Positions 24,859-63,480 are shown, counted from the first letter of the stretch. The stretch is 64,000 nt of DNA from Candidatus Micrarchaeota archaeon (GCA_021797995.1 JAJZYR010000001.1:6114-70113); one strand, 5' to 3'. Numbers and translations are program-made. The notes: generated by a model from the sequence alone, not told the origin.

Positions 24859-24882
24859 GTTGTTGCTTGCATCTCCATGCCG

Positions 24883-24972
24883 ACTATAACTCCGAGCATC
24901 AGCAAGACGGGCTTAAGATTCATCAACGTCACCGCATACTTCCAGGCAGTCGTGGCCTAATCACGATGGCAA
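24883..24972. repeat. Left copy of a perfect 90-bp direct repeat
   Basis: I compared gactataactccgagcatcagcaag...cacgatggca base by base with 26937..27026 and the two are identical. It contains a duplicated start codon plus 17 codons (MTLMNLKPVLLMLGVIV) and 40 nt of 5' flank of the minus-strand gene 26656..26988. Confidence 0.95.
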
Positions 24973-25079
24973 GGGGCCGCGTGCTATAGAGTATCTCAAA
25001 ATAACAAAATACTGTAACTGATCTGCTCAAAAGGAAAATAGTTATATACGAGAAAATTCAAAACTGGTAGTGTGAAGAG

Positions 25080-26615: not shown

Positions 26616-26655
26616 ATCGGGGCTGGTGGCGGTGTAAAGTCCGGCAGAAGCCTGC

Positions 26656-26988
26656 TTACCTGTACGACGTCGATGGAGGCTCGCTCTTTGCCTGTTTCTG
26701 CTTTGGAGGGGCAGTTGGCCTCTGGCGCATTATGTATGCCCTCTGCATAAAGTCGAGATGCTGGCCGAACAGCATGATGCGTATTATTATGGCGGCGATG
26801 ACCAGCCAGAACGACTCCCAAAAGGTTATCGTTATAGGCGTTCCGAGAAGCTTCCATGAGTAAAGGAGGTAGAAGACATAGTTGAGCGCAAACATGAGGA
26901 GGAAGGGTCCGAGGAACAGGAGCAGGAGTATGGCCATGACTATAACTCCGAGCATCAGCAAGACGGGCTTAAGATTCATCAACGTCAC
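26656..26988 (-). CDS. Small integral membrane protein (3 TM) with a P/K/Q-rich tail
   Basis: MTLMNLKPVLLMLGVIVMAILLLLFLGPFLLMFALNYVFYLLY... is strongly hydrophobic. Its 5' end lies inside the right 90-bp repeat. Confidence 0.55.
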   Translation of the reverse strand: MTLMNLKPVLLMLGVIVMAILLLLFLGPFLLMFALNYVFYLLYSWKLLGTPITITFWESFWLVIAAIIIRIMLFGQHLDFMQRAYIMRQRPTAPPKQKQAKSEPPSTSYR

Positions 26989-27026
26989 CGCATACTTCCA
27001 GGCAGTCGTGGCCTAATCACGATGGC
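26937..27026. repeat. Right copy of the perfect 90-bp direct repeat
   Basis: It is identical to 24883..24972, at a spacing of 2054 bp. Confidence 0.95.
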
Positions 27027-27073
27027 AGCCGGCATGGACTTCCCCATGCCCGGGCCAGGATAATGAGGATGTG

Positions 27074-46659: not shown

Positions 46660-48411
46660 TCAGCCCTTTGCCTTTGCCTTGATATCCGACATCTCTTCCA
46701 GAAGGTCCTTCGACTCGCTGTCAAGCATGTCTGGGAACTTGTACCTCAATGCCCGCTCATTTTCATCGTTCATGAAGACGTACAGCGTCTCGTTCTCCTT
46801 GACCTGCCTGCCGAACGTGACATCTTCCATGGAGATGGCCACGCTCTCCCCGGCCTTTGACTCCTTAAGGCTGATGGCATTGTCCTGGATCTCCTTAACC
46901 CTGCCGACTATCTCGCCATGCTGATTCATCAGCTGCCATGATGGCTTAAGCCTTCCCTCCTCCACCCTAACACCGAAGACCGCGGGATGCGAGATCCTAA
47001 AGCAGCTGTTCGGCAGCACGGTAAGCTTGCCAGGGAAGACCAGGGCTCTCTCTATTGCCTCCCTGTCCGTCTTCCTTTCCGCATCAGCCCATTCCTTATA
47101 GTCACCGATTATCTTGTAGATTATATCGCTGCTTATTATCCTTATTCCTGTTGCCTCGCTCTCTGCCTTGGCCTCATCGTCTATGGGAACATTGAACGCA
47201 AGCACTATCCCGCCATAGGGATCGCTTGCCTTCATGGTATATGCATCGAGAACGTCCCTTTTTGTAACCCTGCCTATCTCCTTCTTGCTTATCGCTATCT
47301 TCTCAGCACCGAGGAGCCTCGAGAGCGCCTCTATGCTCCCCATAGTGTCCGCCTTGAGTATGACTCCGGTCTTTTCAACATTGAACACCTCGCTTATCTC
47401 CGACTTTATCTCCTGCTCATAGCCCGATATCTCCGTTGACAGGATCAGCGACCCGGGAAGCGCATTGTCAAGGTTTGACGCACTTATCTTTATCCCTGAC
47501 GCGGCGCTGACGCTGTCTATGTAGTAGAATTTGCTGGAAGACTCTCGGAGCTCCTGCAGCTCCTTCGGTTTCAGCAGCGCCTTTATCCTTGCCGTACCTA
47601 TGCCGATGGGGGTCGCAAACGCCACAGTGTCGTTCACCTTCAGGGTGCCGTTGTAAAGTATGACGTCTACCGTTGCCCCGAGGCCCCTGTCCTCCTTCTT
47701 CTCTATTATATTGCCCCTTCCGGGCCCCATAACCTCTATTTCCAGCCTTTGCTCCAGGAACCTCTGTGCAAGCCCTGTGGCATACATCAGGAGCTCCGCA
47801 AGCCCTTCCCCTGTCTTGGCGCTCTCAGGGACTATCACTATCTCCTTCTTGAAGTCCTTGACCCTGTCGAACCTCTCGCTGTTGAACCCGAGCTCGCTTA
47901 GCTTCCCGACGAGCCCGTATATCCTTGCATCGAGATCGTTCGCCACGCTGCCGCTCTGCTTTGATATCGATTCCGTGAAGGAGTTTGTCTGCTGCGCCCT
48001 CCACCCGGTTATCACATCGATCTTGTTGGCGGCGACTATGAACGGGGTCTTGTACTCCTTTAGTATCTCAAGGGCCTCGTATGTCTGCGGCTCGAAACTC
48101 TTGGTCACATCGACGACGAGTATGGCAAGGTCGGCCACTGATCCCCCTCTCTTCCTGAGGTTCGTGAAGGCCTCGTGGCCTGGCGTATCTATGAATAAAA
48201 GGCCAGGTATGGTTATCTTGACGCTGAACTTCTCGAGGAGCGGACCCACTATCTTTCTGATGACGCTGAAAGGTACCTCGCTCGCGCCAATGTGCTGCGT
48301 TATTCCTCCTGCCTCGCGGTTCGTGATGGTCGTGCTGCGTATGCGGTCCAGTAATGTTGTCTTCCCGTGGTCCACGTGTCCCATCACGCATATTATTGGC
48401 TGCCTGATCAT
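46660..48411 (-). CDS. infB: Translation initiation factor aIF5B (IF-2 family GTPase)
   Basis: MIRQPIICVMGHVDHGKTTLLDRIR carries G1 and DTPGHEAF is G3. With the start at ATG 48411 the protein is ~584 aa; the track ORF runs to 48555 with a non-genic N-terminus. Confidence 0.9.
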   Translation of the reverse strand: MIRQPIICVMGHVDHGKTTLLDRIRSTTITNREAGGITQHIGASEVPFSVIRKIVGPLLEKFSVKITIPGLLFIDTPGHEAFTNLRKRGGSVADLAILVVDVTKSFEPQTYEALEILKEYKTPFIVAANKIDVITGWRAQQTNSFTESISKQSGSVANDLDARIYGLVGKLSELGFNSERFDRVKDFKKEIVIVPESAKTGEGLAELLMYATGLAQRFLEQRLEIEVMGPGRGNIIEKKEDRGLGATVDVILYNGTLKVNDTVAFATPIGIGTARIKALLKPKELQELRESSSKFYYIDSVSAASGIKISASNLDNALPGSLILSTEISGYEQEIKSEISEVFNVEKTGVILKADTMGSIEALSRLLGAEKIAISKKEIGRVTKRDVLDAYTMKASDPYGGIVLAFNVPIDDEAKAESEATGIRIISSDIIYKIIGDYKEWADAERKTDREAIERALVFPGKLTVLPNSCFRISHPAVFGVRVEEGRLKPSWQLMNQHGEIVGRVKEIQDNAISLKESKAGESVAISMEDVTFGRQVKENETLYVFMNDENERALRYKFPDMLDSESKDLLEEMSDIKAKAKG

Positions 48412-48490
48412 GTGGATTACCCCATCTAAATAGTAGCAGATATAAATAGCAAGGATAGATATAAAGACTGATAATGCACATGGTGAGTTT

Positions 48491-49036
48491 ATGAGCCGAG
48501 AACTAATATTCATGAAACCTGACGGGATAGCGCGCAAACTCGTGGGAAGGGTCATATCGCGGTTTGAGGATGCGGGATTCTCAATCGCAAGGATGCAGAA
48601 GGGCAGGATTTCAAGGCAGCTTTCGGAGCTGCTCTACCAGGACTCTGAGGCCCAGCTCACTGGAATGGGCAACAAGACCATAAAGGCGATGACTGACAAG
48701 GGAAACAGGGAAGGGATAATGAAGCTCTTCGAAACCGAGGCGCCTTTTGGCATAGGAAAGCGTCTAAACGAGTGGAACCGGATATATGCCACCTCATCTG
48801 ACGTTATCGCCGTAATAATAGAGAAGGACGGCGATGCTGTAACTGAGGCAAGGGCGATAGTTGGAAAGACGGATCCGGAAATCTCGCCGAAGGGGACGAT
48901 ACGCGGCGACTTCGCCGCGGATTCAATCTACAAAGCAAACCTTGAGAAGAGGGCTTGCCAGAACATAGTCCATGCATCCGACGTCGATACTGCGGAAATG
49001 GACATAAAGAACTTCGAGAAGCATTTCTTCAGGTAG
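48491..49036 (+). CDS. ndk: Nucleoside diphosphate kinase (divergent, with an internal insertion)
   Basis: ELIFMKPDGIARKLVGRVISRFEDAGFSI, GTIRGDFA and the active-site NIVHASD are present. At 181 aa it is ~30 aa longer than typical Ndk. Confidence 0.8.
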   Translation: MSRELIFMKPDGIARKLVGRVISRFEDAGFSIARMQKGRISRQLSELLYQDSEAQLTGMGNKTIKAMTDKGNREGIMKLFETEAPFGIGKRLNEWNRIYATSSDVIAVIIEKDGDAVTEARAIVGKTDPEISPKGTIRGDFAADSIYKANLEKRACQNIVHASDVDTAEMDIKNFEKHFFR

Positions 49037-49210
49037 CATGCTGTGCAGACAGACATGCGTGCTTATCCCCATTGCAACGCATGCAGGCGGGAGGAAATAC
49101 CCGGCTTCGTAAGGCTTGCAAGCTATGGCTCGACTTTCGGCATGTTGCCACTGGGAGTGAGCCGCAACTAAATGCTTAGTTGAGGAATAGGCGCTCTTCT
49201 CAGAGTGGCG

Positions 49211-49516
49211 TTACGCCTGCATGCTCATTCTCACTTCCTCAGTTATGCATTCAGGAGTCCATGCAGGCTCCCACACTAGGTCTATGTTAACCTGGCCCGC
49301 ACCCTGAAGGTGCTCCAATCTGAGCTGAATGTCTGCAAGTATAACGCTTGTGACAGGGCACATTGGGCTCGTCATCGTAATCTTTAGGCTTATGTTGTTG
49401 CTTGCATCTATATTTATGCCATAGATGAGACCAAGATCGACTATGTTTATGCCTATCTCCGGATCAACACAGCCCTTCAAGGCTGTGATTATATCGTTTA
49501 TCGTAAGTCTTTGCAT
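49211..49516 (-). CDS. DUF59/MIP18-family Fe-S assembly protein (SufT-like)
   Basis: VDPEIGINIVDLGLIYGI ... ITMTSPMCPV is the hallmark DUF59 pattern. Confidence 0.8.
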   Translation of the reverse strand: MQRLTINDIITALKGCVDPEIGINIVDLGLIYGINIDASNNISLKITMTSPMCPVTSVILADIQLRLEHLQGAGQVNIDLVWEPAWTPECITEEVRMSMQA

Positions 49517-49541
49517 GCCTTATAGTGGGCCATAACAATTA

Positions 49542-49634
49542 TTTAAAGGCTTGCGAGCGGGAAATCACGCCCATTCATAATGAGGACAGGAGCAGACCGC
49601 AGCAAGGCGTATAAATGCGCTGCGATACGCACGC
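49542..49634 (+). repeat. IS200/IS605-type element end (promoter plus first codons of tnpB); copy of 63381..63472 in inverted orientation
   Basis: My hand alignment with the reverse complement of 63381-63472 shows about 7 mismatches in 93 nt. The region includes ggcgtataaATGcgctgcgatac, and similarity is lost after 49634. Confidence 0.7.
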
Positions 49635-49807
49635 CAGTGAAGATCCGGACTATTTTTGCACCAGGAAATGGGTGCGAAAGCCGGGATCTGTGAAGCGGGA
49701 ACATATCGTGGGATCCGTGAACTAGACCCCAAGGGAAGCCCCGGACTCTAGCCCGGGGATGCTGTCACCTTATTGTGGCCGGTCACGCGGTTCTTGCAAG
49801 CTGCATG

Positions 49808-51211
49808 CTATGCTATCCTGAAGAGATACGAAGAGGCATTGCCCACTACATGGATTAGTGGCTGGGGATACATGCCTATTGCTATTGTGATTACCAGGCA
49901 TGTGACAACGACAAGAACTGTTCCCGTATTCATCCTCATGCGCGCTGAGCCTGCCTTTTGGGCGTATGCCGCCATTATCGGCCTTGCGTAGTAGTACACC
50001 GAGATTATGCTGTTCATCACGCCGAGCACTGCAAGCCACACCAGCCCCGAGTTCACGGCCCCTAGGAAGAGCAGGAACTTGCCCACGAAGCCGGTGGTGA
50101 ACGGCAGCCCTACGAGAGAGAGCATGAAGATGGTCATGCAGAACGCCGCCACCCTGTTCTCACCGTTAAGGCCTATGATGTCATTTATCTCGGTGCGGTT
50201 CTTCGACTCCAGCCATGCGACTATTGCAAGGAGCCCTATGAATAGGAACATGTGCGCGAATATCTGGAAGAGGGCGGCGGAGATGCCTGCCGATGACGAC
50301 GATGCGATCCCTATCAGGATATATCCGGCCTGTGAGATGGACGAATACGCGAGCATGCGCTTTATGTTCCTTTGCATTATGGCGGCTATGTTTCCGTAGA
50401 ACATAGTTGCGACTGACAGTATTGCTATGATTAGGAATGCGGACCTGAATGCGATGAATACCATGATGAGAACCTGCATAAGCGCGATGAACCCGACTTT
50501 CTTGTTTATGCCGCCGAGCATTGCCGTAGCGTATGCAGGCGAGCCCTCGTACACGTCCGGCATAAGCACATTGAACGGGAATACCGATGCTTCTATCCCA
50601 AGCGATGCTATGAACAGCACCATGGCAAAGGCCAGTATGCCGGATTCCTGGTAAACTGGCTGCAGGCTGAGCGAATTGGTCCCCCCATAGAGGGCCACTA
50701 TGGCGAACGAGAGGACACCGACCGAGATTGAGCCGATGATGAATAGCTTTGTCGCGGCCTCAAGGCTCTTTCTCGAGAGCAGCACTATGAATACGGTAGG
50801 TATCACCATAAGCTCAAGGCCCAGAAAGAGCGTTATGAGGGTAACTGAGAGCGACACGAGGTACATGCCCATGAGCGCAAACGACGCCATGAGCGCAAAG
50901 TCACCAAACCCTCCGGCGTATTCGTATGCGAGCACGCTTACCAGTAGCATCGAGAAGGTGAGTATCAGAATGAAGAAGGTCGAGAAGGGGTTTACTGAGA
51001 GCACGCCGAGCACAGTCTGCTGTGTGTTTGCGTATGCCATCGCTCCTGCCGTAATCGTAAGGAGGAGCAGAATGGCTGCGTTGCAGGCGAATTGCGCCCG
51101 CCTCCTGTTTGCAGCCCTTAGCACGAGGTTTACGAGGACAAGCGCACCTGCAAGCAGGAGGAAGAGGTGCACAGGCGTTGCAAAAGCTGCTATCTGCGAT
51201 ACATCTATCAT
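49808..51211 (-). CDS. nuoN: NADH-quinone oxidoreductase subunit N (antiporter-like)
   Basis: It is polytopic, with LGLELMVIPT and KRMLAYSSISQAGYILIG as NuoN-type motifs. It is the last gene of the nuo cluster. Confidence 0.8.
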   Translation of the reverse strand: MIDVSQIAAFATPVHLFLLLAGALVLVNLVLRAANRRRAQFACNAAILLLLTITAGAMAYANTQQTVLGVLSVNPFSTFFILILTFSMLLVSVLAYEYAGGFGDFALMASFALMGMYLVSLSVTLITLFLGLELMVIPTVFIVLLSRKSLEAATKLFIIGSISVGVLSFAIVALYGGTNSLSLQPVYQESGILAFAMVLFIASLGIEASVFPFNVLMPDVYEGSPAYATAMLGGINKKVGFIALMQVLIMVFIAFRSAFLIIAILSVATMFYGNIAAIMQRNIKRMLAYSSISQAGYILIGIASSSSAGISAALFQIFAHMFLFIGLLAIVAWLESKNRTEINDIIGLNGENRVAAFCMTIFMLSLVGLPFTTGFVGKFLLFLGAVNSGLVWLAVLGVMNSIISVYYYARPIMAAYAQKAGSARMRMNTGTVLVVVTCLVITIAIGMYPQPLIHVVGNASSYLFRIA

Positions 51212-53001
51212 TATATCACCAGGAGCGCATACGCAAGGAGGAGGATTGCACTCACCGCGAAGATGAATGCATATGGATTGATGGCTCCTACTGACATCCT
51301 CCTGAGCCGCGATGCGGAGAGTACGAGGAGATGGCCGAGATAATCGAACATGCCGTTAAGATAGCTCTCGAAAAGCGCGACTCCTTCCCCAAGGTCATAG
51401 AGAAAGCTCGCGGAGAGTATATACAGAAGCGCGAATGCGCCGCGGCGGTGTGCTGCCGCCAATGAAACAGACTTTCCCTGAGCCGGAGCCCTGCTTCTCC
51501 GCTTATATGCCAGATAGCTGGCTGCGGCGCCCACGAGCGCGAGAGCCATTACGATTATACCATCCTGCAAGCTTATTGATATCGGCATGCCTGACGCCAG
51601 GTAGGCCGACCAGCCGTACCCGCCTGCCAGGAAACTATTGAGAAAGACGACAAAGACTGACGCAAAAGCCGTAAGGCATGCAAGGATTACTATCGGGAAG
51701 AGCATGCTCCTTGGCTGGCCCAGGTACCTGAGCGCAGTGGCTTCGGCGCCTGCGGGCTTTGACACAAGGAGAAACCACCTGAAGATATAGAAGCTCGTTG
51801 CGAGCCCTATCAGCGAGATTATCACATAAATGACAAGATTCTGGGAGAACGCGCCGCCTGTCGACGCTGCTGCAAAGAAACCGGAAAGCGGAAAGAAGCC
51901 CGCGAGGGAGAGCACGCCGATGAGGGTGGAAACATAAAGTACCTTGTTTATACCCAGGCCGGAGGTCCTGTCGAGGCCCTCTTCGTCCGTGGCCTTCATT
52001 ATCGAACCTGCGCTGAAGAAGAGCAGGGCCTTGTATAGGCTCTGGACAAGGAAGAAGTATATTGCGGCGAAGAGCGCGCCTCCGCTCACGGCAACCAGCA
52101 TGAGCGAGAGCTCCTGGATGGTTGAGTATGCGATCACGCGCTTGACATGACGCGACCTCATTGCACTGACCGTCGAGATTGCCGCGGTCACCACTGCAAA
52201 GGCCATTATGACCGGGGTTACGCCAGCCCTGTATAGGAGGGGATAGAGGATTATCGCAAGGAACACGCCGGCCTTTACCATTGTCGTAGAGTGCAGGAAT
52301 GCCGATACCGGGGTCGGACCCTCCATCGCGTCTGGCAGCCACTCCTGGAATGGAAACTGGGCTGACTTGGTCAGCACCGCGACTACCAGGAGCAGGGCGC
52401 CCAGATACAGCTGCGGCGACGCATGCGACGGTAGCGCTGCAAGTATGCCGGAAAAGCCAAGGGTCCCGAAGAGGTTCAGGAAGACCGCGATGGCCGCCAG
52501 GAGGGCTATGTCCCCCATTAGCACAATGGTTACCGCAAGGCGCGACGACCTGACCGCCCTCTCCCTGCCGTGCCAGAAACCTATCAGGAGATAGCTGGTG
52601 AGGCTCATGAACTCCCATGATATGAAGAGAAGGACGAAATTGCCACTCATGGCAAAGGCGCACATGGAGATCTCGAACGCAAGCATCTCTGCGTAGAACC
52701 TCCTCTGCTCGCTGAGCGTGGACATGAATCCTGATGAGTATACCATTACCAGCGAGCCGATGAACAGGACCGTACCGAGCAGGGCGAGGTTGAGCGGTGC
52801 TATGGTAGTGGTTATGTTAAATGCAAAGCTGCCTGCAGTAAACCACGGGATTGTTACCGTCCCATAAGAGACAAAATACAGGAGGGCAAAGCTTGCAATG
52901 CTGCCCCCTACTGCAACATACCTGAGCCCCATGCTGTTCCTCGAGAGGAGCACGGCTGCAAGGGAGAGCGCCATGGGGATTAGGAGCAGCAATGGAAACA
53001 T
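51211..53001 (-). CDS. nuoL: NADH-quinone oxidoreductase subunit L (antiporter-like)
   Basis: ISWEFMSLTSYLLIGFW, HSTTMVKAGVFL and RVIAYSTIQELSLM are NuoL-type motifs. The protein is 596 aa. Confidence 0.8.
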   Translation of the reverse strand: MFPLLLLIPMALSLAAVLLSRNSMGLRYVAVGGSIASFALLYFVSYGTVTIPWFTAGSFAFNITTTIAPLNLALLGTVLFIGSLVMVYSSGFMSTLSEQRRFYAEMLAFEISMCAFAMSGNFVLLFISWEFMSLTSYLLIGFWHGRERAVRSSRLAVTIVLMGDIALLAAIAVFLNLFGTLGFSGILAALPSHASPQLYLGALLLVVAVLTKSAQFPFQEWLPDAMEGPTPVSAFLHSTTMVKAGVFLAIILYPLLYRAGVTPVIMAFAVVTAAISTVSAMRSRHVKRVIAYSTIQELSLMLVAVSGGALFAAIYFFLVQSLYKALLFFSAGSIMKATDEEGLDRTSGLGINKVLYVSTLIGVLSLAGFFPLSGFFAAASTGGAFSQNLVIYVIISLIGLATSFYIFRWFLLVSKPAGAEATALRYLGQPRSMLFPIVILACLTAFASVFVVFLNSFLAGGYGWSAYLASGMPISISLQDGIIVMALALVGAAASYLAYKRRSRAPAQGKSVSLAAAHRRGAFALLYILSASFLYDLGEGVALFESYLNGMFDYLGHLLVLSASRLRRMSVGAINPYAFIFAVSAILLLAYALLVI

Positions 53002-53002
53002 G

Positions 53003-53311
53003 TCACCACTTCATCCTGGACAGCCTTGCAACGTCAAAGTCTATTCTCCTGGACTTCATGTATACATAGAAGGTTACCAGCGTGATTATCTCCGCCGCCG
53101 CCACCGCCCAGATGCTTATGAGCATTACTATTGCGCCCTGGTTCGGCACTGCGCCATAGGAAAAGAACGACACCAGCGCTATCGCGCTTGCCACAAACAT
53201 GAGCTCTATTCCAAGCATTATCACGATGAAGTGCCTATCGGTGGCGAGCCCTGCGAATGCAATGCCGACAAGCACGACAGCGACGGCAAACAGATAGATC
53301 AGTTCCAGCAT
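53003..53311 (-). CDS. nuoK: NADH-quinone oxidoreductase subunit K
   Basis: This 102-aa, 3-TM protein carries LGIELMFVASAIALV, the NuoK pattern with the conserved Glu. Confidence 0.85.
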   Translation of the reverse strand: MLELIYLFAVAVVLVGIAFAGLATDRHFIVIMLGIELMFVASAIALVSFFSYGAVPNQGAIVMLISIWAVAAAEIITLVTFYVYMKSRRIDFDVARLSRMKW

Positions 53312-53312
53312 G

Positions 53313-53792
53313 TCAGACCACCAATTTTATGAACTTCCTGATGAATAGCACGCTTCCCACCGCAGCCGCAGATAGAAGCAGCACAACCGCGAACAGGACA
53401 GGGTAGTACTCCTGAAATGCCGACGGGAAGGTCTGGGCCATGCTGCTTCCGGCATCAGGCACAGCAGCAACAGCCCTTGAGGTAAAGAAAAGCAGGGCCA
53501 GGGACAGCCCGACGGCAACTGGTATGAAGCTCGCCATGCTTATGTACGCCGACTTCTCCTCTGCAGCTATTGCGACCATGAGGTACGTCGAGAGGCCCCC
53601 TACAAATATGAAGAGCTGGAGGAGCGCGACGATTGGCTGGCCCAGAAGGAGGATGATAAGCGCGCTTCCGAGGAATACCGAGGTAAGGGCAAGCACCGCA
53701 TGCATCAGCCTCTTGAAGATGAAGATTGCAAGGGACGACGCTACCGTCACCGCGGCGAGCGATAAAAATGCAACTGTGTATATTCCGAACAT
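53313..53792 (-). CDS. nuoJ: NADH-quinone oxidoreductase subunit J
   Basis: The pattern HAVLALTSVFLGSALIILLLGQPIVALLQLFIFVGG is NuoJ-like, and the gene sits between nuoI and nuoK. Confidence 0.75.
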   Translation of the reverse strand: MFGIYTVAFLSLAAVTVASSLAIFIFKRLMHAVLALTSVFLGSALIILLLGQPIVALLQLFIFVGGLSTYLMVAIAAEEKSAYISMASFIPVAVGLSLALLFFTSRAVAAVPDAGSSMAQTFPSAFQEYYPVLFAVVLLLSAAAVGSVLFIRKFIKLVV

Positions 53793-53799
53793 GCAAAAA

Positions 53800-54159
53800 C
53801 TACTCCAGCTCCTCGGGTCTTTTCAGGAGCTCCCGCTTGTCGCGCACCTCGAGGGAATAATCCTTTGAAAGCGTAAGGCACTTTGGAGGGCAGACTTCGG
53901 CGCACAGCGCACAGAAGAGGCACCTCTCCAGTCCTACCTGGGGCATTAGCTTCATGCCGCGGTCGGTGGGTGTGTTTACCATCGTTATGGTCTTGTTCGG
54001 GCAGATACGCTCGCATGCGGAGCAGCTTATGCACGTTGGCATATCGAGCCGGAGCTTTCCCCTGTAGCAGTCCGGAAGCGATTCCTTCTCTTCGGGGAAT
54101 TCCAGCGTTGACCTCTTTTCCCCGAGCGCCTTTATCGACTGCATTATGGGTCTCAGCAT
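53800..54159 (-). CDS. nuoI: NADH-quinone oxidoreductase subunit I (2x[4Fe-4S] ferredoxin)
   Basis: Two CxxCxxCxxxCP motifs are present: CISCSACERICP and CLFCALCAEVCP. Confidence 0.85.
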   Translation of the reverse strand: MLRPIMQSIKALGEKRSTLEFPEEKESLPDCYRGKLRLDMPTCISCSACERICPNKTITMVNTPTDRGMKLMPQVGLERCLFCALCAEVCPPKCLTLSKDYSLEVRDKRELLKRPEELE

Positions 54160-54163
54160 CCGA

Positions 54164-55201
54164 TCACGCCACGAATATCATATAAGCCAGTATAAGGTTT
54201 ATTAATGAAAGGGGAAGAAGCCAGAGCCAGCCGAGGCGCAGCACCCTGTCTATCCTCATCCTTACCGTTGTTGCCCTTATCACGACAGTAAAGAGAGCTA
54301 TTACGAATGCCTTAAGTATGAGCCAGGCGACTCCAGGCAGGAATGGCGGACCGAGCCATCCGCCGAAGAACAGGAGAGATATCAGGAGGCCCCACAGGAA
54401 TATCCTGGTATAGTCGAGGAAGAGGGCCAGTGCATAGTAGGGCCCGCTGAAGTCAGTAAGCCATCCGGCTATGAGCTCTGAATCTGCTTCCCTCAGGTCG
54501 AATGGCGGCCTTTCCAGCTCAGCAAGCATGGCAATGAAGAAGACGACAAGGCCGATTGGCATTGCGATCGCAAAGTAGAAGAGCTTTGACTGTGCTGCCA
54601 CTATGCCGCTTATATTGTAGCCGCCGGAGAGGAGCGCTGCTGCCGCGATGACCACGATGAGCGGCAGCTCGTAGCTCAGGAGCATGAGCACAGACCTCTG
54701 GGCGCTTATGTCGGCAAACTTGTTGGAGCTCGAGAAGCCGGCGATGAACACAAGCAGCGGGAAGAATGAGATTGCCGTGAACAGCACGAGCAGGCCAAGG
54801 CCGAGGTTGGTCGCCTGGAGCGTGGGGGAGAACGGGACAAGGAGGATAAGGAAGGTGGTCATCCCGAGGAGGAGCACCGGTCCTAGCTTCATGAGCAGCC
54901 TGTCAGCCCTGTCTGGCTCCACATACTCCTTTGCAAGGAGCTTTACCAGGTCGGCGAGATTCTGGAATATCCCATATTTGCCGACATACGTAGGCCCGTG
55001 CCTGTGCTGCATCCTTGCAATGAGCTTCCTTTCCACCCATCCGAAAATATAGGCAAACACAGACGTGATTATCAGTACTGCGACTGCGTATGCTATTATC
55101 GCCGCGGCGTACGGAAGGAGGCCGCCTGAGCTCAACCAACCCTGCCAGACCGAGATAAGCCTGCTTATGGCCGGTAATGCCGTCATGTTACTATCCTGCA
55201 T
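54164..55201 (-). CDS. nuoH: NADH-quinone oxidoreductase subunit H
   Basis: WVERKLIARMQHRHGPTYVGKYGIFQNLADLVKLL and ELERPPFDLREADSELIAGW are the NuoH signatures. Confidence 0.9.
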   Translation of the reverse strand: MQDSNMTALPAISRLISVWQGWLSSGGLLPYAAAIIAYAVAVLIITSVFAYIFGWVERKLIARMQHRHGPTYVGKYGIFQNLADLVKLLAKEYVEPDRADRLLMKLGPVLLLGMTTFLILLVPFSPTLQATNLGLGLLVLFTAISFFPLLVFIAGFSSSNKFADISAQRSVLMLLSYELPLIVVIAAAALLSGGYNISGIVAAQSKLFYFAIAMPIGLVVFFIAMLAELERPPFDLREADSELIAGWLTDFSGPYYALALFLDYTRIFLWGLLISLLFFGGWLGPPFLPGVAWLILKAFVIALFTVVIRATTVRMRIDRVLRLGWLWLLPLSLINLILAYMIFVA

Positions 55202-55342
55202 CCCGCCAAGGCGGTAATCGCATCAATAAGTCTGCCGTATGGTCTTTGGGACCTGGAAGTGGAACCGTCTACGGCGGTCCGCCTCTCCTTGCCTGGATGT
55301 ATCCTGAACCTGTAGGCGCGCGCTGTCCCCATGCTCCCTGTT
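55183..55342 (-). pseudogene. tnpB (IS200/IS605-family) 5' remnant overlapping the nuoH start
   Basis: MGTARAYRFRIHPGKERRTAVDG... keeps the TnpB N-terminal AYRFRIxP motif and then degenerates. Confidence 0.5.
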
Positions 55343-55362
55343 TTGTTTTGCGTTTTTATATA

Positions 55363-55372
55363 CCTTTCCCGC
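55363..55372 (-). promoter_or_regulatory. TATA-box-like element of the IS remnant, oriented toward nuoH
   Basis: The minus strand reads tatataaaaa about 25-30 nt upstream of the remnant ATG (55342). The same geometry occurs at the other remnants: tataaa at 60307-60312 before ATG 60284, and tataaa at 63401-63406 before ATG 63380. Confidence 0.4.
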
Positions 55373-55470
55373 CCCGTGGGATTGGAGCCGTATGAAAATG
55401 AGTGTCGAAACAGGCCGCATGCGCCTGTAAGGTATTTATACCTTGAAAGCACAATGGCTCTATGTAGTGC

Positions 55471-55944
55471 ATGGACAACAAGACCATGATCAAAGGAATC
55501 ATCTTCGATTTCAATAGGACACTGTACGATCCCGACACAGGGCAACTTGTTGATGGCGCAACTACACTCCTTAAATCACTTCATGGAAAAGGCTATCTGC
55601 TCTGCCTGATAAGCAAGAAGTCCGTTGAGGGAAGGAAAGAGCAGATTACTTCGTTGGGCCTTGACAGATACTTCATAAAGATCCTAATAATAGAAGGAAA
55701 TAAGCTGGAGGCGCACTTCATGGAGTGCCTAAAGGCCATGGCATTGTCCGCTGCAGAAGTGGCTGTTGTAGGGGATAGAATAAACGAGGAAATATTACTG
55801 GGCAATAAGATTGGAATGCGCACCATATGGTATAAGTCCGGTAAATTCGCGGCCGAGGCACCCAAGGAGGCGGTCCAAGAACCGGATTATACGATAACGG
55901 ATCTGCAGAACGTTCCGACCTGTCTTGAAGAGAATGCAGGGTAA
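55471..55944 (+). CDS. HAD-superfamily hydrolase-like protein (motif I variant DFNRT)
   Basis: GIIFDFNRTLYDP, LCLISKKS and VVGDRINEEILLGNKIGMRTIW give a HAD layout. The second Asp of DxD is Asn. Confidence 0.6.
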   Translation: MDNKTMIKGIIFDFNRTLYDPDTGQLVDGATTLLKSLHGKGYLLCLISKKSVEGRKEQITSLGLDRYFIKILIIEGNKLEAHFMECLKAMALSAAEVAVVGDRINEEILLGNKIGMRTIWYKSGKFAAEAPKEAVQEPDYTITDLQNVPTCLEENAG

Positions 55945-55974
55945 AAAGGCTTTCGTAATCTCAAACGCCTTATC

Positions 55975-57303
55975 TCAGTCCCCAGCTCTAAGTGCCCATA
56001 CCCTTACTTCTGTCTTGCGGTCTTCAATGGCACCATCCCCTACCAGCTCTTCTACAACTACCGTACGTATATCCGAGGCGGCTATCTTCCCTATTGTCTT
56101 TTTCATTTCTAGTCTATGCCTCGGATTGTCTATTGAGTAGAAAAATGCAGTGGTTGCGCTCTTGCCTTTGGTTCCGGGCTTAAGAACTGCATCGCTCACG
56201 CCGTTTATGTGCATCCAGTCAAGCACGGTTGAGAACGCCATTTCTGTGCCATTGCCTATCTCAACCCGCAACATTTTGGGAACGCAGACCAGTCTCTCAA
56301 GGTCGGCTCTCAAGTCTATGTCGACTGTCTCTGTCACTGCTTGCTTCTGCATTAAAGGTATAAAACGCGGAGGGTCTATCATACGCAGGCCATCTACTTC
56401 TGCTTTGTTTAACCTTTCGACCTCTACTTGGCTAGCTGCTCTGAAGAATCTCAGCACAGGCGGGGCACTTGCATTATATGCACCGCTTTGCACCCTGTTC
56501 AGGAAATCGTCTTTTGTAAGCAATTCTGCATGAATTCCTGCGCCATTAAGCCTCTCTTTGATGCCTTCAAACTCGAAAGGCATCCCCTGCAGCATGCGAT
56601 CGTCTTGATACACGATCATTACACTGTTCCGGCTATCCACAAACCCTTTAGCCATATTGGCATACATGCCTGCAAAGTCGAGGCCCGTCCCTGCCAAGCC
56701 ATGCATCTGTGAACCAAGCACGAAGCCAAGATTGGACTCTCCAACATCAACCAGCCACCACTCATATAAACCATTTGACCTTTCTAGCACAAAGTCAGCT
56801 CTGATGCAGTACTTCGACCCGTCTGGATCCAAGTGCGTGGATATCAGTTCGGTGGCGGCTCTGAGCCTCTGGAAGGATACCTCATCTATCTTAAGCGAGT
56901 ACGTTGCCGGGACAGAAAACAGCATTGGACCTTCTTCGAAAGTAATTGACCCTGACCGGTTCATGACGTTGGAAGATATGCAATCGCCGGAAGCGGACCA
57001 TGGCGCCCACGATGTCTTTGCAGAGCCGCCAGCCCTGAGTATTGAGCTCTTGAGTATGCCATCGATGAACGTTACTTCACTGGCGGATTTTATGTCTCCC
57101 CTGTCCATAACCCGCAACGCGCTGCCACGTAACTGGACGCGCAGCGCAGATTCGAGATCCGAATGCTGCCTTGCGAATTCCAGCAGCTCCCCTCCCGTAT
57201 TAAGGCGCTTGAGGTCTTTCCAATAAGAGAAGGGCACATTCTGCACCTTGGCAAGACCGCCGCGCTGGACCATTAGTCTCTCCGTTGTGCATTTATCTAT
57301 CAA
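55975..57303 (-). CDS. Hypothetical protein with ATP-grasp-like motifs in GSP-synthetase/permuted order
   Basis: This is a 442-aa open frame overlapping the nuoD stop. The order of motifs is CIRADFVLERSNGLYEWWLVDVGESNLGF (Mg/ATP-site-like), then AVLKPGTKGKSATTAFF, then TVVVEELV..EDRKTEVRVWAL (ATP-grasp central motifs). The assignment is tentative. Confidence 0.3.
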   Translation of the reverse strand: MIDKCTTERLMVQRGGLAKVQNVPFSYWKDLKRLNTGGELLEFARQHSDLESALRVQLRGSALRVMDRGDIKSASEVTFIDGILKSSILRAGGSAKTSWAPWSASGDCISSNVMNRSGSITFEEGPMLFSVPATYSLKIDEVSFQRLRAATELISTHLDPDGSKYCIRADFVLERSNGLYEWWLVDVGESNLGFVLGSQMHGLAGTGLDFAGMYANMAKGFVDSRNSVMIVYQDDRMLQGMPFEFEGIKERLNGAGIHAELLTKDDFLNRVQSGAYNASAPPVLRFFRAASQVEVERLNKAEVDGLRMIDPPRFIPLMQKQAVTETVDIDLRADLERLVCVPKMLRVEIGNGTEMAFSTVLDWMHINGVSDAVLKPGTKGKSATTAFFYSIDNPRHRLEMKKTIGKIAASDIRTVVVEELVGDGAIEDRKTEVRVWALRAGD

Positions 57304-58393
57304 CGCAGGCCATCACCAGATCCAGCGAACCCATTATCGAGAAGAGGTCCGCGAACCGCTGCTCCTTTGCCATGTGCTCCAGTGCGAAGAGATTTATGAA
57401 GCATGGGGAGCGCACCGAGAGCCTGTACGGCCGCTGCGGATCGGCGATCATGTACATCATGCCCTCGCCACGGGGCAGCTCCCTGCTCACTGAAGCTATG
57501 CGATTCTTTGCTGCAGGCCCTATGAGCCTCACCTGGGCCCCCAATGCGTCTCCCTCAGGCATCCTCTTCAGAGCCCCGCGTATGAGCCTTATGCTTTCCT
57601 TTATCTCAAGTATCCTGACCTTGTACCTGGCAAGGTTGTCTCCGCCGCCCAGGACCTGGGAGTTGAAGTTGAGTTCACGGTAGGCGTAATATGGCCTTGC
57701 CTTCCTCACGTCGTAGTCAACGTTCGATGCCCTCAGGACCGGACCGGTGACGCCAAGCCCCTTTGCTTCCTCTGCAGTGAGTATCCCCACGCCTTTCATC
57801 CGCTCCATAAACACAGGATTTGACTCTAGGTATTTACCATACACCTCAAGCCTCTTTTCAATGTGGCCTAGGAGCGACTGGCAGTCTTCATCGAAGCCCG
57901 GAGGGAGATCGCGGGCAACGCCACCCAGCCTCATGTTTACATAGAACATGCGCTGGCCTGTGGCCTGCTCGAGAAGCGCAAGGACCCTGTCCCTGTCCTC
58001 GAACACCCACATGAACATGGTGAACATCTGGCCCATGTCGTTGCAGAGCGCGCCGATGAAGAATAGATGACTTGCTATTCGCTGGAGCTCCAATTCGATG
58101 ACTCTTATATACTGCGCCCTTTCCTTTACCTCTATGCCAAGCGCAGCCTCGACTGTTGCGACATATGCCTCGTCATATGCAAGCGGCGCGACATAGTCAA
58201 GCTTCTCCATGTAAGGCGGGCACTGCATGTACATGCGCGTCTCTACTAGCTTCTCCACCCCCCTGTGCAGGAACCCTACGTGCGCCTCGAGGTTCTTGAT
58301 TGTATCACCGTCAAGGTCAACGACAAGCCTGAGCACGCCATGGGTGCTCGGATGCACGGGCCCTATGTTGATTTTTGTCGTCGTCTTTGTCAC
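57293..58393 (-). CDS. nuoD: NADH-quinone oxidoreductase subunit D
   Basis: INIGPVHPSTHGVLRLVVDLDGD matches NuoD, and the C-terminus reads GSLDLVMACVDR. GTG 58393 overlaps the nuoC TGA (GTGA) and gives a family-typical N-terminus. The track ORF starts at 58459. Confidence 0.9.
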   Translation of the reverse strand: MTKTTTKINIGPVHPSTHGVLRLVVDLDGDTIKNLEAHVGFLHRGVEKLVETRMYMQCPPYMEKLDYVAPLAYDEAYVATVEAALGIEVKERAQYIRVIELELQRIASHLFFIGALCNDMGQMFTMFMWVFEDRDRVLALLEQATGQRMFYVNMRLGGVARDLPPGFDEDCQSLLGHIEKRLEVYGKYLESNPVFMERMKGVGILTAEEAKGLGVTGPVLRASNVDYDVRKARPYYAYRELNFNSQVLGGGDNLARYKVRILEIKESIRLIRGALKRMPEGDALGAQVRLIGPAAKNRIASVSRELPRGEGMMYMIADPQRPYRLSVRSPCFINLFALEHMAKEQRFADLFSIMGSLDLVMACVDR

Positions 58394-58767
58394 CCTTCGG
58401 CCTTGTACTCCGAGTTCCAGGCGAAGCTCTTCCTGAACGGCGGCTCCGTGCCGTCCCACTTCTCGAGCAGAAGCCTCCTGGCGGCCCTGCCCCTTATTTG
58501 TATCCCGAACATCTCTGAGAGCTCCCTTTCATACCAGTCCGCGCACGGAAAGATGTCTATTATGGTAGGCACCCATGCGTCCTTGCAGTCGAGGTCTGCT
58601 TCGATGATGTCGTCCCTGTTGCCGCCTATGTCCCTCAGAAAATAGATAACAGTAATGCTCTGCACATAGTCGATTGCGGTTATTTTCACCAGGTAATCGA
58701 AGCCGGATTTCCTCATTTCCTGCGCTTTCTGCGCTATGTCTTCCGCATTAACTTTCAATAGCTCCAC
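58390..58767 (-). CDS. nuoC: NADH-quinone oxidoreductase subunit C (short form)
   Basis: [29 protein letters not shown] is the NuoC signature. The protein is 125 aa. Confidence 0.85.
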
Positions 58768-59353
58768 CTATCTTCTCCTGCAGTTTGATCAGGGACGCGA
58801 ACAGGCTCTCTGGTCTGGGAGGGCATCCTGCAACGTATACGTCCACTGGCAGCACCTGATCTATTCCCTTCACGATATTGTAGCTCTCCCACCATGGACC
58901 ACCACATGTTGCGCACTCGCCGAATGCGATCACATGCCTCGGCTCGGCCATCTGCTCGTAGAGCCTTTTTATCTCAGGGACCATTGACTTTGTGACCCAG
59001 CCTGCGACAAGCATGACATCGCACTGCCGCGGCGTGGCCCTGAAGAGAAGATACCCCTTCCTCTCTGCGTCTATCCTTGCGGCGCCGAAGTCCATGAGCT
59101 CTATGGCACAGCAGGCGAGCCCGAACTGCAACGGCCATAGCGAGTTCTTCCTAGACCAGTTGACCGCACCCTTGGTCCCGGGAACCATCTTCAGGAGGTC
59201 CGATAGCCTTGCAAAAATCGCATTTGGCTTTATCTCCCTATAACTTATGGAGTCGGCAACCAGCTTGTCCATCTCCCGCTTTGCACTCAGGAACTCGCCG
59301 CTGCTTCTGTCTATCTGCTCTGTCATGGTCTTACACCTGCGCCTCCCTTGCAA
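58748..59353 (-). CDS. nuoB: NADH-quinone oxidoreductase subunit B
   Basis: The N2-cluster ligand patterns are present: [25 protein letters not shown] and AGCPPRPE. Confidence 0.9.
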
Positions 59354-59702
59354 ATATGATTATGAACATCTCGAATATAAAACCTGACACAAAAAGGCCA
59401 AGGATATAATAATTTGCAACGACTGGCAGCGCCCTTGCGGACAGGATCCACATGAGCATTATCGCCGCTATAACCTCAAATGACAGGAACATCGGAAAGT
59501 AGTGCAGGTACTCGTTCATCACGCTGGTGCGCCCACCTGAACTGCTCTCCGCACTCTCATAGCTGTTGTCCTTTACGGAATTAGGCCTGCTGCCCCTTCG
59601 TATGAACTTTGAGGTAAGGAGCATAAGGAGCGGTTCCATGACGGCAAATGCAGCAAGTATTATTATTGCGACGTATACGGAAACCATGATTGAAGATGCC
59701 AT
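59331..59702 (-). CDS. nuoA: NADH-quinone oxidoreductase subunit A
   Basis: It is a 123-aa, 3-TM protein and the first gene of the cluster. The loop NSYESAESS sits where the YECG motif is expected, and [11 protein letters not shown] follows. Confidence 0.7.
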
Positions 59703-59753: not shown

Positions 59754-59828
59754 GGGTCCGTAACTCAGTTTGGCTAGAGTGAGAGGCTTTTAACCTCCAA
59801 GTCGTGGGTTCAAATCCCACCGGGCCCG
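59754..59828 (+). tRNA. tRNA-Lys (anticodon UUU)
   Basis: Hand-folded cloverleaf: acceptor gggtccg/cgggccc (one G-U), D arm actc-agtttggcta-gagt, anticodon arm agagg-ctTTTaa-cctcc (one A-C mismatch at 27-43), T arm gtggg-ttcaaat-cccac. Confidence 0.85.
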
Positions 59829-59925
59829 CCTATTCTTACCCTTCAGCGGGGCAGGGTTCAAATCCGAATTTCAAGCATGTGCAAGAAGCGCAGGAAGCGG
59901 CGCGGTCCGTGCGCGCCATGGCAAG

Positions 59926-60284
59926 TCATTCCTGTCCGTGCGCCTTGAGCGCGGCCCTGGCGATGTCCCTGACCCTCTTCCCTGCCCTCCTCTCCCTCAC
60001 CCTCCTGAAGAAGTTCTGGTACGCCCTCTGCAGCCTTACGAATACGTTCTGGAGGGCCTGCGAGTATATCCTGTTGAGTTCCCCATTCTCACCCCTATCT
60101 CTTTCATGAACCTGTTGAATGTGGACTTTGTTATCTGCAGGTTCCTGCCCTTCAGGTACTCCTCCTTCGCCATCCCAAGGAGTTTGTTGTAGAGGAATCG
60201 CGCGAGTTCTATCTGTTCGTCTATCTCCCTCTGCCTCTTGGCGTCGGGATAGATCCTGAACCTGTACGCCCGCACAGATTCCAT
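59926..60284 (-). pseudogene. tnpB (IS200/IS605-family) 5' portion, frameshifted and truncated
   Basis: Frame 1 reads MESVRAYRFRIYPDAKRQREIDEQIELARFLYNKLL. After a frameshift the homology continues in a second frame (IYSQALQNVFVRLQRAYQNFFRRVRERRAGKRV). Only about 120 of the ~400 aa expected remain. Confidence 0.65.
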
Positions 60285-60514
60285 GACATTTATTATATTG
60301 TAAGTGTTTATACGCCTTCACTTCATCCCGCGATTGAAATCGTGGGTTTTCAGCTCAGATGAATCATTATAATAGCAGCAGAGGTGCTGACCGCTCTTGC
60401 GGCATACCTCTCACTGAGGGGCAGGGCTGGAGGGATTGGGGATCCACATGAACTGGATATATATACGTTATCCGGTCAAGACTCTCTGAACCAGACCAGC
60501 AAACTAGTGGCAGC

Positions 60515-63197: not shown

Positions 63198-63380
63198 CTA
63201 CAGCCGCTGCTTGGCGCGATGAAGGAACTCAAACCGAAAAGGAGCATACTTGCGACTTTCGAGCGTATTCTCAAGAAGAGGGTTGTAGAAGTCCTTTGCA
63301 AGAACGAGCCTCTCGTCTGTCTCCCTCCGCCTCTTGGCGTCGGGATAGACCCTGAACCCGTATGCCAGCACAGCTCCCAT
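63198..63380 (-). pseudogene. tnpB (IS200/IS605-family) 5' remnant
   Basis: MGAVLAYGFRVYPDAKRRRETDERLVLAKDFYNPLLE keeps the TnpB N-terminal motif, but the ORF ends after ~60 codons. Confidence 0.55.
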
Positions 63381-63472
63381 GGCGTATGTATCGCAGCGCA
63401 TTTATACGCCTTGCTGCGGTCCGCTCTCATCCTCATTATGAATGGGCGTGATTTCCCGCTCGCAGGCCTTTA
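63381..63472 (-). repeat. IS200/IS605-type element end; inverted copy of 49542..49634
   Basis: See 49542..49634. The two are about 92% identical by hand alignment, and the region includes the TATA-like box immediately upstream of the tnpB remnant. Confidence 0.7.
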
Positions 63473-63480
63473 ATCCACTC

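Follow-up and report, generated by a model that had tools for sequence, protein, structure and literature searches.

Complex I of Micrarchaeota and Thermoplasmatales has been described as a Nuo complex without NuoEFG, and in Micrarchaeota the genes nuoABCD and nuoHIJKL(M)N are present without an NADH-binding module (PMC5864196). We analysed a stretch of 64,000 nucleotides from a Candidatus Micrarchaeota archaeon (GCA_021797995.1, JAJZYR010000001.1:6114-70113), referred to here as the window, in which the nuo operon is interrupted between nuoD and nuoH. This species likewise lacks the NADH-binding module; unlike the described loci, however, its operon is broken at the D/H boundary, and only two antiporter-like subunits are encoded at the locus. 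The operon lies on the minus strand, and ~2.1 kb separate the nuoD stop (57293) from the nuoH start (55186). Along the direction of the operon, this gap holds a large open reading frame (ORF432), a convergent gene for a hydrolase of the HAD superfamily, and a remnant of the transposon gene tnpB. An earlier interpretation made from the DNA itself (the sequence-only reading) had proposed a gap of this size with three elements, and we found all of them where it had placed them.

The remnant invites comparison with promoters borne by insertion sequences (ISs), in which an element end with promoter signals lies co-oriented and directly upstream of host genes that are otherwise promoterless. The same configuration is seen upstream of nuoH, with the differences that the donor here would be the element's own tnpB promoter, of the archaeal type with a TATA box and a transcription factor B recognition element (BRE), that it lies in a decayed relic of ~200 nt, that the relic reading frame is seemingly coupled to the host gene through an ATGA overlap, and that the case is known from sequence alone. 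We consider it probable that the locus as a whole reflects a derived insertion after which the operon came to work as two transcription units, with nuoH-N expressed from the IS promoter.

A scan of one genome per species yielded 40 nuoD loci, all of them in metagenome-assembled genomes (MAGs) of Micrarchaeota or Marsarchaeota. In every locus whose NuoD was at least 63% identical to that of the window (~26 species, the closest at 79%), nuoD was followed by nuoH after 7-125 nt, and in several of these relatives nuoH begins within or directly at the nuoD stop. Neither ORF432 nor the HAD gene was found at the nuoD-nuoH boundary in any of the ~26 species. This adjacency marks the island as a lineage-specific insertion; it is derived, and was inserted in the ancestor of one Micrarchaeota species. 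The comparison of relatives' nuo loci thus sides with the earlier proposal of an insertion over an ancestral arrangement. The loci of a more distant clade (L029-L041, 54-60% identity) continue after nuoABCD with prefoldin-beta-like, DHH-family and Mre11-like genes, ~1-5 kb past nuoD, and no nuoH was found within 8 kb. The membrane arm of this clade is either encoded elsewhere or lost. The D/H boundary is therefore a recurrent break point in the group, though not by way of the island described here.

We then inspected six contigs of the same species (L045-L050): three from NCBI MAGs, two from ENA assemblies and one from a JGI metagenome. Each of them reproduces the side of the island that runs from the HAD gene through the remnant to nuoH, and a separate ENA contig (L003) spans the 3' end of nuoD, ORF432 and the 3' end of the HAD gene. 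The junctions are real and not an assembly artefact. When the window was aligned to the six contigs with blastn, positions 48001-55996 and 57217 onwards matched at 99.6-99.9% identity, with nothing between, so that a 1220-nt segment of ORF432 is absent from each of them. The deletion junction reads GTGCC-A-TTTCC and has no microhomology. In the deleted allele, 57 nt at the start of ORF432, coding for the conserved N-terminus, and 22 nt at its end are still present, so that the shortened allele is the derived one. All six contigs have kept the HAD gene and the remnant. Intact ORF432 was present on two short ENA contigs, L003 and L004, whose size is what would be expected of a variant 'bubble' in a k=141 assembly. 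Its deletion in every inspected contig shows that ORF432 is dispensable, and it is being lost.

The scar upstream of nuoH can be identified, from its alignment with other copies, as a genuine, internally deleted element of the IS200/IS605 type. Three pieces of it remain, namely part of the left end, approximately the first 22 tnpB codons (ATG at 55332), and a 16-nt scrap of the tnpB 3' end. A profile for nhmmer was built from the sibling copies and a full-length element in L030, a related Micrarchaeota MAG, leaving out the copy beside nuoH; it matched the remnant at 55287-55393 on the minus strand (envelope 55267-55403) with E=1.5e-9. The remnant belongs to a 69-nt repeat family, D1, with siblings at 60217-60285 and 63313-63381, and its peptide AYRFRIHP resembles the characteristic TnpB N-terminus (AYxFRIYP). 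The 3' scrap (CCTTGGCGGGATGCAG, 55196-55211) agrees at 15 of 16 nt with positions 1412-1427 of L030, the last codons of the full-length tnpB there, a score that was reached in none of 500 shuffles; ~6 C-terminal tnpB codons are thus left. The relic reading frame ends in a TGA that overlaps the ATG of nuoH (55184-55186) as ATGA, and the gene calls of L046 and L047 include it, with 49 aa. The earlier statement that a tnpB remnant reaches the nuoH start is upheld.

The element is comparable to tnpB-only (IS1341-like) members of the IS200/IS605 group in the characteristic TnpB N-terminus (AYRFRIYP) and in a left end of ~90 nt. Further likenesses are a subterminal palindrome in the sibling copies (CCCGCGAT/ATCGCGGG in the profile consensus), the lack of a significant target duplication, and the full-length relative of 425-451 aa in L030. 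Unlike an intact IS200/IS605 element, the copy beside nuoH has lost its end hairpins, including a counterpart of the right-end hairpin of L030 (CCCCTGCC...GGCAGGGG), and has no recognisable omega-RNA. The coding regions for the RuvC-like nuclease and the zinc finger are also gone, and the remnant can therefore neither be mobile nor encode a nuclease. A 16-mer beside the remnant that resembles the T-arm of tRNA-Lys with 2 mismatches was considered as a tRNA fragment or att site and rejected, as it aligns better as IS left end.

Among the other copies of this IS family in the window, the one upstream of tRNA-Lys and nuoA matched HTH_OrfB_IS605 (PF12323) at 60036-60284 with E=6.5e-11. The solo left end beyond nuoN was found as an inverted repeat (I1, 49543-49636) of 94 nt that is 93% complementary to 63380-63473, and it matched the nhmmer profile with E=4.1e-8. 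In L030, the full-length tnpB (L030:83-1480) lies co-oriented and directly upstream of nuoB within the nuo operon. Its TGA overlaps an ATG opening nuoB as ATGA, like that of the relic and nuoH, and homology to the nuoB of sister genomes resumes only ~45 nt later, with the right-end hairpin lying between.

Promoter signals were compared across the window. A TATA-like motif at -25 to -37 precedes 12 of the 66 genes, where a chance rate of 2.25% per gene would give ~1.5, and the genes that carry one are typically the first in their units. These include nuoA when counted from M6, with TTATAAA starting at -29 of the M6 ATG. Within the nuo operon, the internal genes showed no TATA-like motif; their ribosome-binding sites are GGTG- or GAGG-like. 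ORF432 follows the internal pattern: it is preceded by a GGAG but by no TATA box, and 19 nt separate it from nuoD. It is co-oriented with nuo and apparently co-transcribed with nuoA-D, which the sequence-only reading had missed. That reading had also invoked an opposite-strand gene in the gap. This applies to the HAD gene only, since all nuo genes are read from the minus strand, as is the large ORF. The HAD gene has a TATA-like TTTATA of its own (55435-55440), 36 nt upstream of its ATG. In the remnant, GGGAAAGG-TATATAAAA starts at -30 of the relic ATG (55332) and conforms in sequence to an archaeal BRE/TATA element. The four left-end copies of the window have a mean column identity of 54%, and no invariant block that they share is longer than AAGG..TATAAA. 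Oligo-T tracts terminate archaeal transcription, and a run of five T residues (T5) past the ORF432 stop is a candidate terminator.

The comparisons show the following history. Approximately 2.1 kb, comprising the ORF432-HAD module and a tnpB element, were inserted at the nuoD/nuoH boundary of a 10-gene operon without nuoEFG; later, the tnpB element lost nearly all of its coding region, and ORF432 was removed by the 1220-nt deletion in the six inspected contigs. In the split operon as we propose it from the sequence signals, a first unit would run from the nuoA promoter through nuoABCD and ORF432 and end at the T5 run, against the convergent HAD gene. A second unit would start from the tnpB promoter in the IS remnant and comprise the relic ORF and nuoHIJKLN. 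The TATA spacing of -30 would be that used in this genome for leaderless first genes, and the 49-codon relic ORF would be translated, followed by re-initiation on nuoH at the overlapping ATGA. The IS scar would in this way restore expression of nuoHIJKLN, and a captured tnpB promoter would explain why the scar has persisted. It is plausible that nuoA-D and nuoH-N no longer form one transcript, and such a split would fit the T5 run, the convergent HAD gene with its own TATA box and the TATA box of the remnant.

The large ORF of the gap had been recognised earlier as a minus-strand frame of 442 aa overlapping nuoD; the ORF is present, while the length and the overlap did not hold. The 442-aa version results from mechanical extension to a TTG at 57303. 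The likelier start is the ATG at 57273, 19 nt past the nuoD stop and with GGAG 6 nt upstream; the resulting 432 aa equal the length of the stored public-database protein (P0001), and the start also agrees with the N-termini of orthologs. The TTG region of the extension (57290-57303, TTGATAGATAA) is the sequence at which nuoH apparently begins in L005, the closest relative. This TTG overlaps the nuoD stop in L005; in the window, it is in frame with ORF432. ORF432 might have inherited the former translational coupling site of nuoH, although the agreement in frame could equally be chance (1 in 3).

Searches of ORF432 against Pfam and NCBIfam gave no match. Pfam searches with 21 members of the family (E up to 1) returned no family and scattered noise only, and a sequence profile search of the PDB likewise gave only noise, such as FNR at E=0.014. 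The family is rare, with 3 clusters in 5.8 billion non-redundant sequences and 27 representatives among 1.84 billion proteins (clusters at 50% identity). No match was found in IMG/VR, plasmids or phages, and a metagenome scan added one more distant member (L051), which is adjoined by neither a HAD nor a nuo gene.

Structures were predicted with AlphaFold2. A model based on an alignment of 3 sequences was unusable (predicted local distance difference test, pLDDT, of 50), whereas the 21-sequence alignment gave a model with a pLDDT of 91.7 and a predicted template modelling score (pTM) of 0.91. The top matches of this model in a Foldseek search of the PDB were human, yeast and plant glutathione synthetases (E=2e-10 to 1e-6, 345-383 columns), followed by the glutathionylspermidine-synthetase-like proteins YjfC, YgiC and GspS, and then by D-Ala-D-Ala ligases (~205-220 columns). 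There were 51 matches at E up to 1e-3, and nearly all of the 50 listed were ATP-grasp enzymes (glutathione synthetase, GspS, YjfC/YgiC, Ddl, DcsG), those outside the class among the 50 being three NisB dehydratase chains and one putative gamma-glutamylcysteine synthetase. TM-scores against glutathione synthetases were 0.35-0.41 with a root-mean-square deviation of ~10 A, modest values that are expected of multi-domain enzymes with mobile lids. In the model, then, ORF432 is predicted to have an ATP-grasp fold that is closest to eukaryotic-type glutathione synthetases.

Residues D160, D176, R275, K310, K365, E422 and R424 of ORF432 are invariant or nearly so, and conservation across the family extends to K365 in a VLKP strand, E408/E409, E422-x-R424, D176-x-G-E179-S-N181 and R275/R278. 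These residues would fit the nucleotide and metal binding of an ATP-grasp enzyme. The model resembles eukaryotic-type glutathione synthetase (PDB 2HGS, 1M0W, 3KAL, 8FBZ) over nearly its full length, and the conserved Lys, Glu and Arg of its C-terminal strands and its central D-x-G-E-S-N motif form a pattern that would be expected of an ATP-grasp enzyme binding ATP and Mg2+. It differs from glutathione synthetase in having no detectable sequence similarity to that enzyme, and in having as partner a HAD hydrolase, which glutathione synthetases do not have. An E-x-N motif in the middle of the protein would presumably suit the circular permutation known for eukaryotic glutathione synthetase. The fold of this family may be of interest to students of the origin of that enzyme class.

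The HAD protein scored above the curated cut-offs for the Rossmannoid core in three Pfam families: PF13242 (E=7.8e-12; 45.4 bits, cut-off 22), PF13419 (1.4e-10; 42.0, cut-off 23.8) and PF00702 (8.9e-8; 33.2, cut-off 26.4). In NCBIfam, all family matches were sub-threshold and no equivalog threshold was reached. Motif I, normally DxDx(T/V), reads D-F-N-R-T, so that the nucleophile Asp is kept and Asn occupies the +2 position; the same DFNRT occurs in the Marsarchaeota ortholog of L001 (L001:1645-2100). The Asn in place of the general acid/base Asp hints at non-canonical chemistry.

Orthologs of the HAD protein (62% and 73% identity) adjoin orthologs of ORF432 in L001 and L002. The pair is convergent in L001, a Marsarchaeota MAG, as it is in the window, and divergent in L002; in both genomes it lies away from nuo, and a pilin-like gene, Trm5 and RibA are among its neighbours there. 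The pair is thus a two-gene module that travels together. An adjacency that outlasts rearrangement suggests joint action, and the two proteins may well work together. The position of the pair elsewhere argues against a role of this cargo in complex I. Base composition was considered as a sign of foreign origin and rejected: G+C content at third codon positions (GC3) is 0.67-0.74 in most nuo genes, and the lower value of ORF432 and the HAD gene, 0.54-0.55, is only ~1 standard deviation below the mean of the window.

A bolder claim, which we put forward tentatively and do not rate as probable, is that the decayed tnpB has been domesticated as a promoter and coupling leader for nuoH-N and is now indispensable, and, together with this, that ORF432 founds a new prokaryotic family of ATP-grasp enzymes resembling eukaryotic glutathione synthetase, which would act with an Asp-x-Asn HAD partner on a small molecule or a protein. 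Domestication would explain why no inspected strain has lost the relic or the HAD gene, in contrast to ORF432, which is being deleted. At the other end stands the view that the operon still gives a single transcript, which would start at the nuoA promoter, cross ORF432, pass the HAD gene in antisense and then the scar, and reach nuoH-N, the TATA box of the remnant being a functionless relic. This seems to us rather unlikely. Such a transcript would collide with that of the convergent HAD gene, whose own TATA box is well placed; conservation in the remnant, which is only ~68% identical elsewhere, is highest in the TATA block; and the relic ORF is open exactly to its ATGA overlap with nuoH. In favour of a single transcript, the T5 run has the minimal length for a terminator, with no stronger signal seen, and the TATA box of the solo left end (49533-49636) points antisense into nuoN, so that presence of the motif does not imply its use. 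The reading as a derived insertion with two transcription units has several further points weighing against it. The T5 run is short and may be read through, across the HAD gene in antisense; strain identity of 99.7% leaves no power to test for selection on the TATA box. The remnant or its 49-aa relic alone gave no Pfam match even at E up to 10, HTH_OrfB_IS605 not being reached, the left-end palindrome of the siblings is eroded in it according to the profile alignment, and an Rfam scan for omega-RNA or other RNA returned tRNA-Lys only. The right-hand boundary of the insert lies within 55165-55200 and cannot be fixed more closely, since the N-terminus of NuoH varies among relatives. Finally, an identical HAD protein is encoded on at least 23 contigs, of which 6 were inspected base by base.

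The route by which the cargo arrived can be separated from the question of transcription. The sequence-only reading had suggested that the cargo arrived with, or was fixed by, a mobile element. Arrival with the IS is not supported by the evidence: ORF432 and the HAD gene lie outside the element, no target duplication is significant, and nothing recognisable as this IS was seen beside the pair in L001 and L002. The apparent 13-nt target-site duplication at both edges of the island, GATAG(A)TAA(C)ATG, was discarded, as 16% of shuffles score equally. There is a fair but less than even chance that IS and cargo came in separate, unrelated events, the IS entering upstream of nuoH before or after the cargo, and the cargo by illegitimate or homologous recombination without help from the IS. 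The position of the cargo outside the IS ends and the insignificant duplication favour this, as do the marginal or absent tblastn matches of the L001/L002 pair to peptides of the tnpB remnant, and L030 provides an example of a solitary tnpB insertion within the nuo operon without cargo. IS200/IS605 elements are not known to carry flanking cargo, which points the same way. Separate arrival has to contend with the immediate adjacency of remnant and cargo, and with the at least 4 IS left ends in 15 kb and the contigs that change neighbourhood exactly at the edge of one of them, which make IS-mediated recombination plausible and suggest that the repeats mediate rearrangements. It is very improbable that ORF432 and the HAD gene were recruited to act on complex I, perhaps in its modification or assembly, and that their position is adaptive. 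ORF432 is indeed placed for co-transcription and translation with nuoA-D, and the two genes are paired in three genomes; but the pair is not beside nuo in L001 and L002, ~26 related species have the complex without the pair, the six inspected strains of the species that received the insert have all lost ORF432 by deletion, and the distant member L051 has neither nuo nor HAD neighbour. We give hardly any credence to an ancestral arrangement or a chimera of assembly or binning. Splits between D and H do occur, as L029-L041 have no nuoH after nuoD, but the genes that follow nuoD there differ from those of this island, all close relatives have the two genes adjacent, and both junctions recur in independent assemblies from different samples.

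On the favoured reading, the locus is an essential respiratory operon that has tolerated a cut, with insertion, loss of the intruder and probable rescue by an IS promoter as successive states. They can be followed both between species and between strains of a single population, in a lineage of archaea that is uncultivated and genome-reduced, the small acidophilic Micrarchaeota. The locus offers a concrete target for studies of operon architecture and subunit stoichiometry. The case itself is fairly ordinary operon remodelling, which introduces no new principle and overturns nothing known.

The features of the locus are collected in Table 1. Pfam families of the upstream half of the operon were assigned on same-species gene calls (Oxidored_q4, Oxidored_q6, Complex1_30kDa, Complex1_49kDa), and those of the downstream half likewise; relatives have the downstream genes in this order, with no island before them. 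In the species of the window, nuoH is called from the ATG at 55184-55186 on the same-species contig L048, which gives 340 aa.

Table 1. Coordinates of the nuo operon, the island between nuoD and nuoH, and associated elements (positions in the window)
Feature	Position	Strand	Remarks
Left end with ~36 tnpB codons	63275-63491	-	same IS family
Sibling tnpB remnant	59926-60372	-	left end and ~120 frameshifted N-terminal codons; upstream of tRNA-Lys and nuoA
tRNA-Lys	59754-59830	+	between sibling tnpB remnant and nuoA
nuoA	59331-59702	-	probable start M6, 59687
nuoB	58748-59326	-	
nuoC	58390-58767	-	
nuoD	57293-58393 (mechanical ORF to 58459)	-	PF00346, E=4e-74
ORF432	55975-57273	-	432 aa; co-directional with nuo; predicted ATP-grasp ligase
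1220-nt segment inside ORF432	55997-57216		present in window, absent from 6 of 6 inspected same-species contigs
T5 run	55943-55947	-	28 nt past ORF432 stop; overlaps HAD stop codon; candidate terminator
HAD-superfamily hydrolase gene	55471-55944	+	157 aa; capless; convergent with ORF432
Internally deleted IS200/IS605-type element	55196-55403	-	~200 nt, three pieces
Candidate TATA box with BRE	55354-55369 (TATA 55354-55362)	-	TATATAAAA preceded by GGGAAAGG; points towards nuoH
49-codon relic ORF	55183-55332	-	translation starts MGTARAYRFRIHPGKE; TGA 55183-55185
nuoH	54164-55186 (or 55201)	-	PF00146, E=5e-90
nuoI	53800-54159	-	
nuoJ	53313-53792	-	
nuoK	53003-53311	-	
nuoL	51211-53001	-	
Single nuoM/N-type gene	49808-51211	-	
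Solo IS left end, no tnpB	49533-49636	+	between nuoN stop and DUF59/FeS_assembly_P gene (PF01883)

The locus holds 10 nuo genes, A-D, H-L and one of M/N type, with the order broken between D and H. The earlier assignment to the 11-subunit type, in which all core genes follow in the order A-B-C-D-H-I-J-K-L-M-N, is not upheld, and no third antiporter-like gene was found within the 64-kb window. The window and its closest relatives have two antiporter-like subunits at this locus, nuoL and one of M/N type. In the more distant relatives L023, L026 and L042, a third antiporter-like gene of ~487 aa lies between those two. The clade of the window appears to run a 10-subunit complex.

The same-species contigs L045, L046 and L047 are collinear with the window as far as the outer left-end edge of the sibling remnant, at ~60368-60372. 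Beyond ~60372, three neighbourhoods were seen: a lysyl-tRNA synthetase gene (LysRS), as in the window; genes for a polyprenyl synthase and prolyl-tRNA synthetase (ProRS); and three unannotated genes. The switch of neighbourhood at 60296-60372 reflects either strain rearrangements or misjoins induced by the repeat.

Elsewhere in the window, two direct repeats of 90 nt (24882-24971 and 26938-27027) are 100% identical and lie 2056 nt apart, and each covers the beginning of a small ORF together with the sequence before it. Between the repeats lies a gene of 511 aa (25080-26615) that has the lowest GC3 of the window (0.41) and no Pfam match. The repeat-flanked region 24882-27027 looks like another insertion or duplication junction.

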